From Actinomycetota bacterium (GTDB lineage: Bacteria > Actinomycetota > Coriobacteriia > Anaerosomatales > SLCP01), in NCBI GenBank assembly GCA_037446725.1, contig JBBIIC010000010.1, forward strand, positions 1,114 to 65,113: 64,000 nucleotides of DNA. Reading direction: 5' to 3'. Every line of letters begins with the position of its first letter. Within the stretch, counting starts at the first letter, position 1. Shown here piece after piece: positions 30,199 through 56,729 of this stretch. The notes beneath the pieces are model-generated. The model made no database searches. It saw only the letters and a list, made by a program, of their open reading frames with translations, and was not told the origin of the DNA. The translations under genes were made by a program, and so were the position numbers.

Positions 30199-30313
30199 GA
30201 CCGATGCGACCGCCCCTCTGCCCCGACACATGCGTGCCCGAGGCGTCGAACCAAGGATACGACAACGCCCGTCAGTCGACGAATCGCGTCGGCTCGGGCG
30301 TCAGGTTCGCGAC

Positions 30314-30342
30314 AATGTAACACAGGTTACAAGCGCGCTCAA
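30314..30342 (-). promoter_or_regulatory. Candidate nuo promoter (-35 TTGAGC, 17-nt spacer, -10 TACATT) overlapped by the perfect palindrome TGTAAC-N4-GTTACA (30316-30331)
   Basis: Read on the minus strand as cTTGAGCgcgcTTGTAACctgtGTTACATTgtcg. The palindrome resembles the Rex operator TTGTGAA-N4-TTCACAA, matching 8 of 12 arm positions, with the mismatches placed symmetrically. It lies about 118 nt upstream of the nuoA ATG. Confidence 0.4.
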
Positions 30343-30389: not shown

Positions 30390-30465
30390 TGGAGCCGACG
30401 AGGGGACTCGAACCCCTGACCTACGCATTACGAGTGCGTTGCTCTACCAGCTGAGCTACGTCGGC
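30390..30465 (-). tRNA. tRNA-Thr (anticodon CGT), CCA encoded
   Basis: Minus strand: GCCGACG TA GCTC AGCTGGTA GAGC A ACGCA CT-CGT-AA TGCGT AGGTC AGGGG TTCGAGT CCCCT CGTCGGC T CCA. This is a complete cloverleaf read by eye. Confidence 0.92.
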
Positions 30466-50106: not shown

Positions 50107-50222
50107 GCCATCGCTCCTGCCCCGGCCGGCCGTGCCCCGGGGTACCGCCGGAACACGCCTTGTCGGCTAGGGCTGTTCCTCCACCCGACAACGCCAGGCA
50201 AGAGCGTGGACCGGTCTTGTGG

Positions 50223-51401
50223 CTACGGCGACACCGATCCGCGCACGTGGCACTCGGCGCAGTACGTCGGCGCATGGCAGTCGAAGCATGCCTGCGCTCC
50301 GGACTCGCGCACCGGATCCATGTGCTGCTGGATCCACGTCCGGGCAGGATCGATCTCACCGTGGTGACAGTCGTTGCAGAAGTCGGCGCCGGGCTGACTT
50401 GCGTGGCACCTCTCGCAGACCTCGGGACGCGTCTTGCCGTCTTCGCCGTGGTCCTCCCCGAAGCCCTCGGGATGCGGCATCTGCACGCCGTGGCAACCGT
50501 CGCAGAACTCGCGCTCGTTGTGGCAGGTCTGGCAGTACCCGACCGCCGCGACGGGCGGCAGGTGCAGGAGCTGCTCTTCCATCGGGGCGTCGGTGTGCGG
50601 CTCCTCGAGGCCCTCACGTGCGGCCGTGTAGGCCGCGTAGTCCTCGTTGGCGAGCGCCGCGTGGCCGCCGCTCTCACCAAACGCCTCGTAGAAGCCCGGC
50701 TCGTCGTGATTAGCAGGCATGAGATCGAAGTCCGCAGGGTGGCATGCCTCGCACTCGCCCGGCGCGACGATGCCGCTCACCGACTCACCGCTTGTCGTAT
50801 GACAGCGGTAGCACGCCGCCATGAGCATGAAGTCCTCGTGCGGCTGGTTGGGCTCCCCGGTGTTGGGGTCGGTCAAAGTGAGTTCGAAGTCCTCTACGTG
50901 TGCGGTCCGGTTGTGGCAGACCGTACAGTGGATCTCGGCCTCCTCGTGTACAGCGTGGTCGATGATGATGCCTTTGCTCGGCGTGACGTTGCGGTTCTCA
51001 AGCCAGTGGCACTGGTTGCACTGCTTCGAGCCCATATGCGCACCGTCGAGCGCGAGATGCGAGCCCTTGTTCAGGGGCAGCTCGAACTTGTTGGTCGCGG
51101 TGAGGTAGAGCTCGCCGAGTGCCTCGGCCTTGTGGAGCAGGAAAGTGACCGGGTCGGCGTTCACCGGCATATGGCACGCCATACACGAGATCTCCGAGTG
51201 CGGCGAGCGATTGTACGCGAGGATAGTGTCGTCCTGAACCTTGTGGCACCCCTCGGCGCAGAACCAGTACGTCGAGGTGACGCCGAGCGCGGCAATCACG
51301 AACGCGGCGAGCCCGATGACCCCCGCGGCGGTCCAGGCGATGTAGCGGGGACGCCTGACCGGATCCGTGTAGCCGGAGAAGAATCCCCTCACGTCTGGCA
51401 T
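50223..51401 (-). CDS. Membrane-anchored dodecahaem cytochrome c with NapC/NirT/NrfH-like N-terminal module
   Basis: 392 aa. One TM helix (YIAWTAAGVIGLAAFVIAALGVTSTYWF) is followed directly by C48AEGCH (CX3CH). There are 11 further CXXCH motifs, at C73, C128, C159, C197, C217, C290, C300, C329, C342, C372 and C381. Confidence 0.9.
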   Translation of the reverse strand: MPDVRGFFSGYTDPVRRPRYIAWTAAGVIGLAAFVIAALGVTSTYWFCAEGCHKVQDDTILAYNRSPHSEISCMACHMPVNADPVTFLLHKAEALGELYLTATNKFELPLNKGSHLALDGAHMGSKQCNQCHWLENRNVTPSKGIIIDHAVHEEAEIHCTVCHNRTAHVEDFELTLTDPNTGEPNQPHEDFMLMAACYRCHTTSGESVSGIVAPGECEACHPADFDLMPANHDEPGFYEAFGESGGHAALANEDYAAYTAAREGLEEPHTDAPMEEQLLHLPPVAAVGYCQTCHNEREFCDGCHGVQMPHPEGFGEDHGEDGKTRPEVCERCHASQPGADFCNDCHHGEIDPARTWIQQHMDPVRESGAQACFDCHAPTYCAECHVRGSVSP

Positions 51402-51504: not shown

Positions 51505-54063
51505 CTAGTAGTACCAGTCCGTGACCCCGGGCGCGGTGACATACACGGAGCCGAATATCTCTCCGCCATCGTAGATGTCGTTCCAGTACACGTACACATT
51601 GTAGGGAGCCGCCTGCACCGGGACGTTGTTGATGGTCGAGATGCCGTTCCAAGAGGGCCCGCCGTCGTTGCCGGATGCAATCAGCCGCCCGTTCGTGCTG
51701 TTGCGTACCTCGTAGTACACACTCTCGTTGTTGCCACCCACGAATCCCGTCCACAGCAACCGGAGGGTCGCCGTCGGGCTCGACACGGTGAAGGTCGCCC
51801 TGTTGACGGGCTCGACGTTGCCGACCGAGTCGACCGACCAGAACTCGAGAGTGTGGTTTGCGCTGCCGCCGACTGGCGGCGCGGGCACGTTGACCGTCGT
51901 CCCCGTCTGCTGCGCGCCACCGTTGAGCCGATAGTGTGTGGCTGCGACAGTCGAGTGGGCATCGGTTGCCGTCAGCGTGATGGTGGCTGGTCCGATGTAA
52001 GAGGGCTGCGCGTTCGACGTCGTCACCGGCGGTGTCGTGTCGGCCGCAACCGTGAACAGGGCGGTCTTGCGAGCCTCGCTGTTGCCCAATTTGTCCAGCG
52101 ACCAAAACTGGATCGTGTGCACCCGCGTGCCGGAGAGGGGCGGCAGCACTCGTATGGTGGTGCCCACCTGGACCGGGCCTCCGTCGATCGTGTAGTAGGT
52201 GCGCCTGAGCCCGTGGACGAGCGAGTAGTACGGCACGTCTACGTCCGCAGCGGTCAGCTGGATGGTGGCACCACCGATGTAGGAGGCCACGGCGTTCGAG
52301 TTGGTCAACGGCGGGGTTGTATCTGTCACGTGACACCGTGCGCACAAGTTGAACGAAGCGTAGTCCCAGCCGCCACCCCAGGTCTTATTGTGGCAGCTCC
52401 AGCAGTTGTCGCCGACGTCGAACGGATGGTCGTACGCGATCCCTTCAGTCCGGTGGTTGAAGTCCGAGTGGACAGAGGAATGGCAGCCGCCCTGGCTACA
52501 GGTGGCGGACCACTCCGTGAACGTGTCTCGCGGGGTCGGATGGCACGAGGAGCAATCCGTGCCGTGAACGGTGGCCACGTTGGCGTTGCTGTGACACGGG
52601 TCGCAGGTGTAGGTGTCCCCTTCGATCTGGCTCGTCATCAGCGAGTAGTCGGCCGCGTGGCCGTGAGGCTCGAGTTGAGCGGAGTGGCAGGTGCCGCAGT
52701 CGAAGGTCGGCGACACTCCCGAATGGCACGCATCGCAGCCCGGGAGAGGCTCACCGGTGACCACCGAGCTCCCGAAGTGGATGTCGATCGCGTCTCCGGC
52801 TTCATGGCATGCGGTGCACTCCGTATACTCTTCGGGCACCTCGTGCAGCAACGAATGGCAGTTGAGACAGAGGCCATAACGGGGAGTCGACGCGTCCTCC
52901 ACGGCGGGTTCGATTGGTCTCACCAGGAAGTACTCGACGTCGCTCTCGTGCGGGAACACCTGGAACCGCGGGTTGTCGGTCGACTCCACACTCGGCGAGG
53001 TCGTCACGTTCTCGGAAGCATATGACGTGACCGAGAACTCCTGTCCTGCCAGCAGCGTCGGGTTCGTCCCTCGCTCGGACGGACCGACATCTCGCGCATC
53101 CTCGTGGCACTGCTGACAGATCGGTCCTCTGCCTTGCTGCAACTCGGTGCGCGCGGTCGTCTCCATCGATTCGCGGGGCATGATGTATCCGGCGTTGTCC
53201 TGGCCGAGGCTCCCGATCATGGTCTGCGTGGAGTCGACACCGTCAACGACCGGCAGGCGGTCGTAGTAGTACGCATCGCCCTCCGGCGCGACCAGGTCGT
53301 TCTCGACCGTATGGTCGCGCATGAGACCCGAGTCCTCGCGGTGCTGTCCGACACGTCCCTGGTGGCACGAAGCGCACCAGGCCGTGCCATACACGCCTAC
53401 GGTGGTCTCCGAGCTGCCGGGGGACTGTTTGAGCAGCCGATTGGTCCTGACGGCGTAGGCGGCATCACTTGCGACTGAAGAGCGCAGCCGATCGCCGAGG
53501 AAGGGCTCGATGGTCTCGGTATCGTGCGGTGAATGGCAGTCGCTGCACGTGAGTGTGCCGCCGGGACCCGAAAAGACCCCGGCGCTGCTCGTGGTGCCCA
53601 CCGAGCCGCCGGGGATGACACTCGTCGCCTCAATGCTGTGAGTCGCGGCCGGTTCCAGCCCGGTCCTGGCCTTGATCACACCGTAGACACCGGTCCCACC
53701 CGTCCCGTCGTGGCATGATTCGCAGGTCGCCTTGATCGTGGCCCCCGGCAGGAGCTTCACACCGGCGACCGGCGCCGCGTGAACCGAGTGGCAGGCCTGG
53801 CACTTGTTGGTGCCGGTCGTGAACGCGCCGTGCGGGCCCTTGCGGGTGTCGGCGGTCGGCGTGGTCTCGCTGCTCGACTCGAGGACCGCCTGCTCGGTGA
53901 GCCCGTGACAGTCGATGCACTGACTGCGGGCGACGCCTTCGGGGTAGGTAGCACTCTCGCTGGGATAGGCGAACGCGGCAGCGGCGGTCAGGAAGACCGC
54001 GCACGCCGCAATGGCGGCAACAGCTGCTGCTCTCGACAACCTCATCCGCGCCGATCTCCGCAT
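51505..54063 (-). CDS. Exported pentadecahaem cytochrome c with two tandem Ig-like surface domains and a C-terminal beta-sandwich-like domain
   Basis: 852 aa. Signal peptide (MRLSRAAAVAAIAACAVFLTAAAAFA; start 54063 or 54045). There are 14 CXXCH motifs, at C49, C88, C114, C173, C230, C316, C399, C416, C443, C456, C487, C504, C554 and C574, plus one CX4CH (C522SQGGCH). Repeats at aa 581-674 and 675-762. No LPXTG or SLH motif seen. Confidence 0.9.
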   Translation of the reverse strand: MRRSARMRLSRAAAVAAIAACAVFLTAAAAFAYPSESATYPEGVARSQCIDCHGLTEQAVLESSSETTPTADTRKGPHGAFTTGTNKCQACHSVHAAPVAGVKLLPGATIKATCESCHDGTGGTGVYGVIKARTGLEPAATHSIEATSVIPGGSVGTTSSAGVFSGPGGTLTCSDCHSPHDTETIEPFLGDRLRSSVASDAAYAVRTNRLLKQSPGSSETTVGVYGTAWCASCHQGRVGQHREDSGLMRDHTVENDLVAPEGDAYYYDRLPVVDGVDSTQTMIGSLGQDNAGYIMPRESMETTARTELQQGRGPICQQCHEDARDVGPSERGTNPTLLAGQEFSVTSYASENVTTSPSVESTDNPRFQVFPHESDVEYFLVRPIEPAVEDASTPRYGLCLNCHSLLHEVPEEYTECTACHEAGDAIDIHFGSSVVTGEPLPGCDACHSGVSPTFDCGTCHSAQLEPHGHAADYSLMTSQIEGDTYTCDPCHSNANVATVHGTDCSSCHPTPRDTFTEWSATCSQGGCHSSVHSDFNHRTEGIAYDHPFDVGDNCWSCHNKTWGGGWDYASFNLCARCHVTDTTPPLTNSNAVASYIGGATIQLTAADVDVPYYSLVHGLRRTYYTIDGGPVQVGTTIRVLPPLSGTRVHTIQFWSLDKLGNSEARKTALFTVAADTTPPVTTSNAQPSYIGPATITLTATDAHSTVAATHYRLNGGAQQTGTTVNVPAPPVGGSANHTLEFWSVDSVGNVEPVNRATFTVSSPTATLRLLWTGFVGGNNESVYYEVRNSTNGRLIASGNDGGPSWNGISTINNVPVQAAPYNVYVYWNDIYDGGEIFGSVYVTAPGVTDWYY
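51778..52323 (-). repeat. Tandem duplication encoding two ~90-aa Ig-like domains inside the cytochrome gene
   Basis: DTTPPLTNSNAVASYIGGATIQLTAAD...YYTIDGGPVQVGTTIRV...HTIQFWSLDKLGNSE...FTVAA is followed by DTTPPVTTSNAQPSYIGPATITLTATD...HYRLNGGAQQTGTTVNV...HTLEFWSVDSVGNVE...FTVSS. Confidence 0.8.
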
Positions 54064-54134
54064 CCGCTCACAGACGGAGATCCCACTGAGTACACCATAT
54101 CTGTGATTATGGAATCATCCCTATTCTGGCACCG

Positions 54135-54150
54135 TGTGAGCTACGTCACA
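54135..54150. promoter_or_regulatory. Perfect palindrome TGTGA-GCTACG-TCACA (Rex- or CRP/FNR-type operator candidate) upstream of the cytochrome genes
   Basis: The 18-mer GTGTGAGCTACGTCACAA (54134-54151) matches the Rex consensus TTGTGAA-N4-TTCACAA at 11 of 14 specified positions. It is also identical to the CRP core TGTGA-N6-TCACA. It lies 72-87 nt upstream of the ATG at 54063. A left half-site, TGTGATTATGGAATCA, is at 54102-54117. Confidence 0.5.
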
Positions 54151-54289
54151 ATCATACCCTGGTACGAGGGGTCGTCCGTCGCCGGTCGCACCCGCCTTCA
54201 CACCCATTATGGGCACCTGCCGGAACGCGATGCCCGCGACGGGGGCTCAGACCAGAGAACCTCCACATTCCACGCGGAGTCGCCCCTCG

Positions 54290-55396
54290 CTACCGGGCGA
54301 GCCGCAACACCTGGATCCGGTCGTTCTCCTTGTCCGCGATGAGCAGAAGCTCGCCGTCTTCGGACACGTCGATCCCGTTCGGGAAGTTGAGCTGTGCGGG
54401 CAGGACGCCACGCGTACCTACCGAGGTCTGCGGCGTGCCCTTCCCGTCGAGCAGGACCACCGAGAACGTGAACGCATCTACCACGGCGAAGGTGTCCTCA
54501 TCGACGACCGCGATTCCTCTCGGCAACCCGAACTCGTAGGGTGTCCCCCCCTGCGCGCCCGTCTCCCACATGAATACCCCGTCAAGTGTGAAAGCCTGCA
54601 CCCGGCCGTTGTTCGAGTCGGCGACGAGTACGGTCGAATCCGGCATGATCGCGATCCCGTTCGGCCGCGCGAACTCCCCGGCGCCGCTGCCGGGCCGGCC
54701 GAACTGGCGCACGAACTCGCCGTCCTTGGTGAAGACGACCACCTGGTAGCTGTCGAGCGCATACACGAGATCGCCCCACAGCGCGACGTCGGTGACCGCG
54801 ATCCCGGTGCCGTCCTGTCCTGAGGCGCCGCGCCCCACCACGGTGTTCGGATCGGGGAAGCGTCTCAGGAAACGGCCCTGCTCGTCGAACACCTGGATCT
54901 GGTCGTTGCGGAAGTCGGCGACGTAGACATCACCGTCTTCGTCCACTTCTATACCCAGCGGCGAGTTCATGAGACCCGCCTCCCAGGTGGCCTCGTAGCC
55001 CGGAAGCGGCTTCGTGAGCCCGAACCCACCGAAAACGAAGAGGAAGCGTCCGCTCGGTCCGAACGCTGCCACCCTGTTGTTCTCGGTGTCGACTACGTAG
55101 ATCTTGCCGTCGGGCGCGAACGCCGCGTCCATCGGGCGGTCGAACCCCGGCGCGTCTCCCCTGCCGGGACCCGATATGGTCATCACGGGAGTCAGGCCGG
55201 CAATCGTCTCTCCCCCGCGAGTCACGAACCCGTCGGGCGTGGAGGGGTAGGAGATCATGTAGACGACGAGGCCGATGAGGACGATGGCAAGGAGGACAGC
55301 GGTCAGGATAAGGAGTCGTCTCGCGGACAAGAGACGGACGGCCAGGCCGCCATCATCCGTCGGCGTGACCTCGACCGGCGGCTGCCGTTCGCTCAC
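54290..55396 (-). CDS. Membrane-anchored NHL-repeat six-blade beta-propeller protein
   Basis: 368 aa. TM helix LLILTAVLLAIVLIGLVVYMI, then six NHL-like repeats (FDRPMDAAFAPDGKIYVVDTENNRVAAF, LNSPLGIEVDEDGDVYVADFRNDQIQVF, FARPNGIAIMPDSTVLVADSNNGRVQAF, LNFPNGIDVSEDGELLLIADKENDRIQVL and others). Confidence 0.88.
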   Translation of the reverse strand: MSERQPPVEVTPTDDGGLAVRLLSARRLLILTAVLLAIVLIGLVVYMISYPSTPDGFVTRGGETIAGLTPVMTISGPGRGDAPGFDRPMDAAFAPDGKIYVVDTENNRVAAFGPSGRFLFVFGGFGLTKPLPGYEATWEAGLMNSPLGIEVDEDGDVYVADFRNDQIQVFDEQGRFLRRFPDPNTVVGRGASGQDGTGIAVTDVALWGDLVYALDSYQVVVFTKDGEFVRQFGRPGSGAGEFARPNGIAIMPDSTVLVADSNNGRVQAFTLDGVFMWETGAQGGTPYEFGLPRGIAVVDEDTFAVVDAFTFSVVLLDGKGTPQTSVGTRGVLPAQLNFPNGIDVSEDGELLLIADKENDRIQVLRLAR

Positions 55397-56094
55397 GGTG
55401 TCACCCCCAGACGATTGAGACCCGCGAGCGCCTCCTCGAGACCCGGATCGTAGCTCAGGGCGATCCGGTAGCGCTCCTCGGCCAAGCCTGGCTGTCCGAC
55501 CTGCTCGTAGGCCTCCCCAAGTAATGCCTGCAGGTCAGCGCTATGGGGATCCTCCGAGAGGGCGGGAGGCAGGATCTCCGTGACACGCGCCCACTCCCCC
55601 CGCTCGGCGAGACGCCGGGCGAGAAGTGCCGCTGCCAGCGTGTGGGTTGGCCAGGCTTCCAGGGTCGCCTCAAGGAGCTCTTCTGCCTCGGCCCCACGGC
55701 CGAGTTCGATCAGGCACACGGCACCGTTGTAGAGAGCGGCCGGCTCGTCCTTCCGCACGGACAGCACTGCCTCATACTCCTTGACAGCGTCGGCATACCT
55801 GCCGGATTCCTGGTACGCATAGCCGAGGACAAGCCGCGCGTCTAGATCGTCGGGGTTCGCCTCCAGCGTTGCTGAGAGCTCAGCGATGCGCTCCTCCTGC
55901 GGACCGGCATGCCGTCGTTCCCCGCCGCCAACGGTGAGCACGACGAGCACCCCAGCTCCCACGACCGCAACGGCGAGTACGACGACGAGGGTCACGAGCC
56001 GGCGAGGAGCCTCGGCGGCCGTGTCGCGAACGTCGTTCGGGTCGGTCGGGGCGTCGGGTCCGCTGATCTCGGGTGTGCCGACTTCTAGGGTCAC
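55393..56094 (-). CDS. Membrane-anchored TPR-repeat protein
   Basis: 233 aa. TM helix LVTLVVVLAVAVVGAGVLVVLTV, then TPR repeats (LVLGYAYQESGRYADAVKEYEAVL and others). 4-nt overlaps on both sides. Confidence 0.8.
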   Translation of the reverse strand: MTLEVGTPEISGPDAPTDPNDVRDTAAEAPRRLVTLVVVLAVAVVGAGVLVVLTVGGGERRHAGPQEERIAELSATLEANPDDLDARLVLGYAYQESGRYADAVKEYEAVLSVRKDEPAALYNGAVCLIELGRGAEAEELLEATLEAWPTHTLAAALLARRLAERGEWARVTEILPPALSEDPHSADLQALLGEAYEQVGQPGLAEERYRIALSYDPGLEEALAGLNRLGVTP

Positions 56095-56729
56095 GCAGAC
56101 GCACTCCGTGGGCTGAGGTGGAACGATAGTATCTGCAACTCGCCTGCCACGTCTGCCTGACGAACTTCGACCCCTTCGGGTACCTGAAGCTGAACGGGAG
56201 CGAAGTTCATGATGGCCCGCACACCTGAGGCGACAAGGCGGTCTGCCACCCCCTGCGCGTTAGCCGCCGGCACGGTGATGATGGCAATCTCGACGCCCTC
56301 GCGGTCAACGACCGCCTCGAGGTTGTCCGCGTCTTCGACCGTATGGCCGTCGACGGCCGTCCCGATCTTCGCGGGATCGGCGTCGAGCACCGCGACGACC
56401 TTCATGCCGCGCTCTTCGAACCCCGGGTAGCTCTGCAGCGCGCTGCCGAGGCGCCCATATCCGACGATGGCGACGCGCCGGTGCTCGGTCAGCCCGAGGT
56501 GCTTAGAGAGATGGCTGATGAGCAAGTCGACGTCATAGCCGATGCCCCTCACCCCGAACTCCCCGAGATACGAGAGGTCCTTGCGCACCTGCGCGGCGTT
56601 GGTGCCCGCCATCTCGGCGATCTGCACCGAGTTGACCACGGGCATATGCAACGCGCTCGCCTGAACGAGACAGCGCAGGTAAACCGGCAGGCGTTGTACG
56701 GTCGTGGGAGGGATCTGGGGTGCCTTCAT
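56091..56729 (-). CDS. rex: Redox-sensing transcriptional repressor Rex
   Basis: 212 aa. VQRLPVYLRCL, VRKDLSYLGEFGVRGIGYDV, and Rossmann motif VAIVGYGRLGSAL. Confidence 0.93.
   Translation of the reverse strand: MKAPQIPPTTVQRLPVYLRCLVQASALHMPVVNSVQIAEMAGTNAAQVRKDLSYLGEFGVRGIGYDVDLLISHLSKHLGLTEHRRVAIVGYGRLGSALQSYPGFEERGMKVVAVLDADPAKIGTAVDGHTVEDADNLEAVVDREGVEIAIITVPAANAQGVADRLVASGVRAIMNFAPVQLQVPEGVEVRQADVAGELQILSFHLSPRSASA

Follow-up and report, generated by a model that had tools for sequence, protein, structure and literature searches.

Repression of respiratory genes by the redox-sensing protein Rex is textbook knowledge and well established. In Streptomyces avermitilis the footprinted Rex operators (rex, nuoA1, atpI) lie "between -35 and -10 and encompass -35", and experimentally bound operators carry three or fewer mismatches to the consensus TTGTGAA-N4-TTCACAA; the bound sites include TTGTGACCTGCTTCACAT at nuoA1 and a three-mismatch GTGAC...GTCAC site, TCGTGACGACAGTCACAA, that binds in electrophoretic mobility shift assays (PMC5355995). 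In a solved Rex-DNA complex Arg48, Lys49, Arg60 and Gly61 read T3, T4, G5, G7 and A8 of each half-site (PMC8836258). Closer in lineage to the DNA described here, the paper describing the first isolates of Anaerosomatales places a Rex gene within a multiheme cluster of Parvivirga hydrogeniphila, an Fe(III) reducer, with none in Anaerosoma tenue (PMC9686372). Here we analyze a palindrome upstream of a multiheme cytochrome operon in a 64,000-nucleotide stretch of an Actinomycetota genome (Coriobacteriia; Anaerosomatales; assembly GCA_037446725.1, contig JBBIIC010000010.1), the whole of which we refer to as the window. Anaerosomatales/OPB41 are widespread subsurface Fe(III) reducers that have barely been cultivated. 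We consider it probable that the palindrome is a Rex operator placed over the -35 element and spacer of the cytochrome operon promoter, and that repression there would be relieved by NADH.

The palindrome is a perfect inverted repeat, TGTGAGCTACGTCACA, at 54135-54150. All genes of the locus lie on the minus strand and the gap that holds the repeat is therefore the upstream region of the cytochrome gene. The operator and the two cytochrome genes are as follows:

54134 to 54151, minus strand: predicted 18-bp operator, TTGTGAC-GTAG-CTCACAC on the gene strand, with the core TGTGA-N6-TCACA at 54135-54150.
51505 to 54045, minus strand: secreted multiheme cytochrome c, first gene of the operon, 846 aa from the second ATG, with 14 CxxCH motifs and one CxxxxCH (15 hemes).
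50223 to 51401, minus strand: membrane-anchored NapC/NirT-like multiheme cytochrome, 392 aa, with 11 CxxCH motifs and one CxxxCH (12 heme motifs).

The repeat TGTGAGCTACGTCACA is the only exact TGTGA-N6-TCACA in the window, where a composition estimate predicts about 0.02 per 64 kb, and the sole match with one mismatch (52590-52605) falls inside the cytochrome gene. The 18-mer at 54134-54151 agrees with TTGTGAA-N4-TTCACAA at 11 of 14 positions and at all 10 core positions, and no other sequence in the window comes within three mismatches of the Rex consensus (about 0.23 expected per window). A first-pass annotation of this DNA had reported the repeat and its coordinates, the 11-of-14 match and the identity to the CRP/FNR-family core, and each of these was borne out on rescoring, the 10-base core and its spacing being exact. 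Its figure of 48% GC for 54061-54120 was likewise reproduced (48.3%, with 60.6% for the whole gap and 67.9% for the window). A lone exact match in 64 kb is only mildly unexpected, a point in favor of chance, and the significance of the palindrome rests on its position and on the comparative evidence.

The position of the palindrome relative to the promoter was assessed in an alignment of ten orthologous upstream regions, from cytochromes 45-92% identical to the window's protein. Two blocks are invariant in all ten: TTG.GA, that is TTG(T/A)GA (window 54151-54146), and TG..AGAAT (window 54131-54123), which lies 17 nt 3' of it. From this conservation we infer a sigma-70-type promoter, with a -35 and an extended -10 element, upstream of the cytochrome operon:

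54146 to 54151, minus strand: predicted -35 element TTGTGA, assigned on conservation, which doubles as the left half-site of the operator.
54123 to 54131, minus strand: predicted extended -10 element TGcCAGAAT, whose TG..AGAAT columns are the invariant ones.
54114 to 54118, minus strand: predicted transcription start at about 54116, placed from the -10 element, giving a 5' untranslated region (UTR) of about 70 nt.

The -35 hexamer forms the left arm of the palindrome. Counted from the predicted start, the palindromic core runs from about -34 to -19 and is centered at about -26.5, and it overlies the -35 element and most of the spacer. Overlap with the core promoter of the target gene, as expected of a Rex operator, is thus present on the predicted promoter. 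This placement would occlude RNA polymerase and is the geometry of a repressor rather than the position of an activator. CRP/FNR activators are centered at -41.5 (class II) or at -61.5 and beyond (class I), and a center at about -26.5 has neither spacing. Two other candidates for the -10 element were rejected. CATAAT at 54111-54106, which would place the palindrome at about -43.5 in activator geometry, is unconserved beyond the closest relatives, and TATGAT at 54156-54151 is without a -35 partner and belongs to a conserved block upstream of the -35 element.

The palindrome occurs in the window (TTGTGACGTAGCTCACAC) and, among the orthologs, in L002-L004 (TTGTGACGAAGCTCACAC; protein 92% identical), L001 (TTGTGGCGAAGGTCACAA; 78%) and L085 (TTGTGACAAAGGTCACAG; 60%). 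In four of them (the window, L002, L001 and L085) both half-sites are retained while the central four to six bases vary; constant arms around a drifting center amount to operator-like conservation. One could argue instead that no dedicated operator exists, the left arm being the -35 element and the right arm a chance pentamer in the spacer that close relatives have inherited. The four site-sharing orthologs do form a single clade whose flanking promoter sequence is conserved too, and L005, L006, L011 and L088 have a working-looking promoter with TTGAGA and without the palindrome. However, in L085 the arms are intact although the spacer center and the flanks have changed, and the -35 element of the palindrome clade, TTGTGA, fits TTGACA worse than the TTGAGA of the others and co-occurs with TCACA. 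With the independent promoters and the enrichment described below also standing against it, we regard this explanation as very improbable.

The more distant orthologs (L005, L006, L011, L087 and L088) have the promoter, with TTGAGA or TTGTGA as the -35 element, and lack the right arm. In three distant lineages a distal palindrome, GTGAA-N4-TTCAC, lies just downstream of CATGAT/CATAAT, some 45 nt ahead of the -35 element: TCGTGAACGAGTTCACGG (L005 6852-6869), TTGTGAGATGCTTCACCA (L006 5834-5851) and GTGTGAAGCGGTTCACTC (L087 5450-5467; also L086 and L090). The distal palindromes of L005, L006 and L087 resemble Streptomyces Rex operators, and window 54185-54211 holds a decayed remnant of the same element, GGGTGTGAAGGCGGGTGCGAC (TGTGAA at 54202-54197). 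This pattern of proximal and distal palindromes suggests that the binding sites of a single regulator have turned over within one promoter region.

To set the window site in the context of its clade, we assembled 168 loci (1.52 Mb) with genes for related cytochromes, which yielded 157 non-redundant 300-nt regions upstream of paralogous cytochrome genes. A sequence counted as a site when it departed from the 14-position Rex consensus at no more than three positions or from the 10-base core at no more than one. Sites were present in 21 of the 157 regions, versus 1.8 +/- 1.4 (maximum 6) in dinucleotide shuffles, an enrichment of about 12-fold; with relatedness allowed for, about 15 independent cases remain among the 21 site-bearing regions. 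The same palindrome lies over the core promoters of independent cytochrome genes (L062/L167, L073, L064, L154 and L020). In L062/L167 and L073 it takes up the 17-nt spacer that separates TTGTCA or TTGCAC from TAGAGT or TAAAGT, in L064 it overlaps the -35 element, and in L020 it follows a TATGAT -10 element. The recurrence on independent promoters, the excess over shuffles and the sister site on the nuoA promoter described next all argue against a right arm produced by chance.

The codons for heme-binding CxxCH motifs (TGYGAnnnnTGTCACA) mimic TGTGA-N6-TCACA inside cytochrome genes. Such mimics occur at window 52590-52605 and in many loci (e.g. L020 7171, L043 7372 and L061 6193) and were set aside as intragenic artefacts. 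Because of this mimicry, position weight matrix scans for the Rex or CRP motif should be confined to non-coding DNA.

A second palindrome of this family lies at the promoter of the window's nuo (complex I) operon, which runs from 30231 down to 20597:

30315 to 30332, minus strand: sister palindrome TTGTAACCTGTGTTACAT, over the spacer and -10 element of the nuoA promoter, a putative second member of the regulon.
30342-30337 and 30319-30314, minus strand: nuoA promoter, -35 element TTGAGC and -10 element TACATT, separated by 17 nt.

The palindrome is conserved in the relatives L169, L175 and L178, the sequences in relatives being TTGTGACTTGTGTTACCT, TTGTAACGTATGTTACAT and TTGTAACCTGTGTTACAT, and that of L169 has a TTGTGAC half-site, as in the cytochrome operator. 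The nuoA promoter is a classical target of Rex. The window's nuoA site shares 14 of its 18 positions with the footprinted nuoA1 Rex operator of S. avermitilis. With one mismatch allowed, TTGTRA-N6-TYACAA has two matches in the 64 kb, at the cytochrome and nuoA promoters, where 0.047 are expected and none of 150 shuffles reaches two, a statistic that is indicative only because the degenerate motif was written after both sites had been seen. Further intergenic sites of the motif family precede NuoC/D-like, MenA-like and NapC-like genes, and together these sites are predicted to outline a respiratory-chain regulon of the kind that Rex controls.

Two other features flank the nuoA promoter. At 30253-30301 (minus strand) a nuoA 5' block, ACGCCCG...CGGGCGTTGTCGTATCCTG, contains a long inverted repeat and is conserved in all relatives examined, including L172, which is without the upstream promoter. 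Directly upstream of the promoter, at 30390-30465 (minus strand), is a tRNA-Thr(CGT) gene that has a terminator-like hairpin.

The candidate binder is encoded in the same locus:

56091 to 56729, minus strand: rex, redox-sensing repressor, Pfam PF06971 (1.5e-15) and PF02629 (1.1e-20).

The protein has the winged helix (PF06971) and the Rossmann domain with GxGxxG that characterize the Rex family, and it aligns end to end with Thermotoga maritima Rex (5zz5/7wb3; E = 2e-45). Conserved residues include R13, S34, Q47, R49, K50, G59, R61, G62 and Y65, of which R49, K50, R61 and G62 are base-contacting, and, on the NAD(H) side, GYGRLG (90-95), Y101 and D116. The bases contacted by Rex in the solved complex are present at five of five positions in the left half-site (TTGTGA) and four of five in the right (GTGTGA). 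The three mismatches of the window site fall outside the contacted bases, save for one outer T. At least 20 loci have a rex ortholog (57-97% identity) 2-2.5 kb upstream of their cytochrome gene, and related contigs repeat the order rex-(TPR)-NHL-cytochrome-NapC-like. Searches by tblastn with E. coli CRP and FNR and M. tuberculosis Crp gave no CRP/FNR homolog at E <= 0.05 in the window and the 168 loci. In the rex-less loci L062 and L073 the neighboring regulators, a histidine kinase and CheY-like receivers, include no DNA-binding candidate.

A previously undescribed Rex-like paralog, which we term RexL (215-217 aa), is encoded directly after the NapC-like gene in L002, L005, L087, L019, L030 and L101. 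The GxGxxG motif is missing from it, its recognition helix reads RRD where Rex has RKD, and it is cysteine-rich, with conserved cysteines (ACSPGW and a C-terminal CxxxxxxxCxC) as possible ligands of a metal or an Fe-S cluster. In the window RexL has been lost by a clean deletion of about 640 bp, and the last 36 nt of the open reading frame (ORF) remain at 50167-50202 (minus strand). Its positions in three relatives are:

L002 9279-9932, L005 10888-11535 and L087 9405-10052: RexL.

Several observations weigh against Rex as the protein that binds the window site. The site has three mismatches to the canonical 14-position consensus, among them C/G instead of the usual A/T at inner positions 7 and 12, and three-mismatch sites in S. 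avermitilis bound Rex more weakly (PMC5355995). TGTGA-N6-TCACA is equally an exact CRP-type core. The sites of the clade fall into two classes, GTGAA-N4-TTCAC (class 1) and TGTGAC-N4-GTCACA (class 2), of which the window site belongs to the second, and such a split might reflect two binding proteins. Five rex-linked loci have a class-2 site that precedes an invariant CGATAWCG box by exactly 21 nt of unconserved sequence, before a large downstream cytochrome gene (L020 7171, L021 4831, L029 6935, L034 at about 7195 and L100 3876); this geometry would suit an activator (site center at -41.5) if the box is a -10 element. About half of the rex-linked loci are without a detectable site, and a search of the regions upstream of rex in 20 loci turned up no Rex site. 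A scan of 53900-54450 for consensus promoters and terminators returned no match; it missed the predicted promoter because only 8 of 12 positions match.

These points raise the possibility of a real operator that serves another dimeric regulator, either a CRP/FNR protein encoded elsewhere and acting as a repressor, or RexL. Besides the exact CRP-family core, the palindrome has a central TA that fits the GlxR-type pattern TGTGANNTANNTCACA. The membership of the window site in class 2 (TGTGAC/GTCACA) and the class-2 sites at a fixed distance from CGATAWCG point in the same direction; two of those loci, L029 and L034, have a further class-1-like site downstream, beside the Shine-Dalgarno sequence, which would suit two proteins. 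RexL, with its different recognition helix, is present in the same operon region of the six relatives named above. However, the tblastn searches that gave no CRP/FNR protein covered the same loci in which rex is found at least 20 times, and the center at about -26.5 excludes class I or class II activation at the predicted promoter. Both the window, from which RexL has been deleted, and L001, which has none at this place, keep a good site. Mixed half-sites in L034, L009 and L169 (nuoA) suggest one protein that tolerates both variants, and among the footprinted Rex operators of Streptomyces is a class-2-like site of almost the same sequence (PMC5355995). On balance we consider another regulator possible but doubtful.

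A narrower version of this idea holds that the operon is under two Rex-family proteins, with Rex on class-1 sites and RexL on class-2 sites, the window palindrome included. If that were true, the window would represent a natural RexL deletion strain with an orphan operator. The local presence of RexL shows no clean correlation with site class, L002 having RexL and the window and L001 lacking it while all three keep the site, and we think this arrangement unlikely.

Repression of the cytochrome pair by Rex in response to NADH/NAD+, as the first-pass annotation had suggested, is the best-supported reading, given the promoter overlap, the intact Rex residues, the synteny with rex and the nuoA motif; the inner positions that depart from the consensus are where it fits less well. 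The alternative offered there, a CRP/FNR activator, is disfavored both by the center at about -26.5 rather than -41.5 and by the lack of a CRP/FNR homolog in the 1.52 Mb of related loci. We envision a scenario in which, at low NADH/NAD+, an NAD+-bound Rex dimer would occupy the site and block RNA polymerase. As NADH accumulates, Rex would change conformation and leave the DNA, and the cytochromes, with a putative role in extracellular electron transfer, would be expressed, probably along with the nuo operon through its sister site. The result would be reoxidation of NADH. What the sequences show is the site, its placement on a conserved promoter, its own conservation, the motif enrichment, the linkage to rex and the intact Rex residues; the transcription start, Rex as the binder and the response to NADH are what we infer.

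The gene order of the locus is sugar transferase, Wzy-like/TPR membrane protein, rex, TPR gene, NHL-repeat gene, gap, cytochrome, NapC/NirT-like gene and B12-radical SAM gene. The first-pass annotation had placed rex immediately upstream of the gap; in fact two genes separate them:

55393 to 56094, minus strand: TPR gene.
54290 to 55396, minus strand: NHL-repeat gene.

Homologs of the cytochrome were found only in uncultured Coriobacteriia, Anaerosomatales and "Actinomycetota" metagenome-assembled genomes. The mechanical ORF start of the cytochrome gene is the ATG at 54063. A second ATG (54045-54043) is preceded by a GGAGAT Shine-Dalgarno sequence, all orthologs conserve ...CGGAGATCGGCGCGGATGAGG, and L001 has ATA in place of the first ATG. 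The true start is probably the second ATG, at 54045, and the listed start at 54063 is probably wrong; the gap would therefore be 54046-54289. The spacer had been described earlier as 226 nt at 54064-54289, and of that description the AT-richer character holds and the left boundary probably does not.

A second element in the gap had been proposed to accompany the palindrome:

54102 to 54117, no strand assigned: TGTGATTATGGAATCA, about -1 to +15 in the predicted initial transcribed region, unconserved.

The element is present as described. Its TCACA half-site is TCGCA in L002 (92%) and TTGCA in L001 (78%), and the segment is absent in distant orthologs; we have accordingly rejected it as a second operator, and a regulatory role is not borne out by conservation.

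Two hairpins were also found in the gap:

54053 to 54082, minus strand: 5'-UTR hairpin GATCTCCG-N14-CGGAGATC, pairing the Shine-Dalgarno sequence GGAGAT (54059-54054) with an invariant anti-Shine-Dalgarno TCTCC.
54252 to 54279, minus strand: hairpin CTCCGCGT/ATGTGGAG followed by GUUCUCUGG, just past the NHL stop codon.

The stem of the first is kept in eight of eight orthologs, with G-U changes and one compensatory change, and its single-sequence fold is not significant (z = -1.07); it may serve in translational control of the cytochrome gene. The box TGTGGAGGTTCTCTGG of the second is conserved in seven orthologs, and this hairpin may be the terminator of the rex-TPR-NHL transcript, separating two transcription units. 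An Rfam scan of the gap returned no credible family. A small ORF (MWRFSG...) downstream of the NHL gene was rejected as coding, its conservation being at the DNA level and its changes nonsynonymous.

Our literature search found no paper on a Rex operator at multiheme cytochrome genes. Because Rex repression of respiratory genes is so firmly established, the advance would be incremental. If the Rex reading is correct, it would nonetheless provide the first concrete regulatory link from the NADH/NAD+ ratio to extracellular electron-transfer cytochromes in Gram-positive Actinomycetota (Anaerosomatales/OPB41), and would define a small predicted regulon of complex I, a NapC-like quinol dehydrogenase, a terminal multiheme cytochrome and possibly menaquinone synthesis. 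The locus offers a testable promoter-operator pair and would place a Rex operator at a new kind of target, in uncultured Coriobacteriia.

Comparison with known systems helps to place the site. With CRP/GlxR-type sites it shares an identical 10-base core and spacing; unlike them it is centered at about -26.5, no CRP/FNR gene was detected near the 168 related clusters, and the TGTAA half-sites of the nuoA sister sites are atypical for CRP. The window Rex aligns from end to end with the proteins of the Rex-NAD+-DNA complexes of T. maritima (7WB3; E = 2e-45) and Thermus (3IKT; E = 2.4e-43) and shares Arg48, Lys49, Arg60, Gly61, GxGxxG, Tyr100 and Asp115, although protein identity is about 45-50% at most and the center of the operator differs. 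The published account of P. hydrogeniphila, unlike ours, concerns gene neighborhood only and describes no operator, promoter or regulon; this organism, of the same order-level lineage, likewise has a Rex-type gene beside multiheme cytochromes implicated in Fe(III) reduction (PMC9686372).

The closest parallel is with the Streptomyces Rex operators (S. coelicolor and S. avermitilis cydA, nuoA, atpI and rex-hemACD). The window site departs from these at positions 7 and 12, where C and C/G replace A and T, and in having a G for one outer T; no site was found upstream of rex here, and the window site is a prediction from sequence; the target is a multiheme c-type cytochrome/NapC-like operon of anaerobic Coriobacteriia rather than cytochrome bd or ATP synthase. 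Like them, it is an 18-bp inverted repeat in the TTGTGA...TCACAA frame that lies over the -35 element and spacer of a predicted respiratory promoter, with the repressor gene in the neighborhood of the regulon and nuo among the putative targets.

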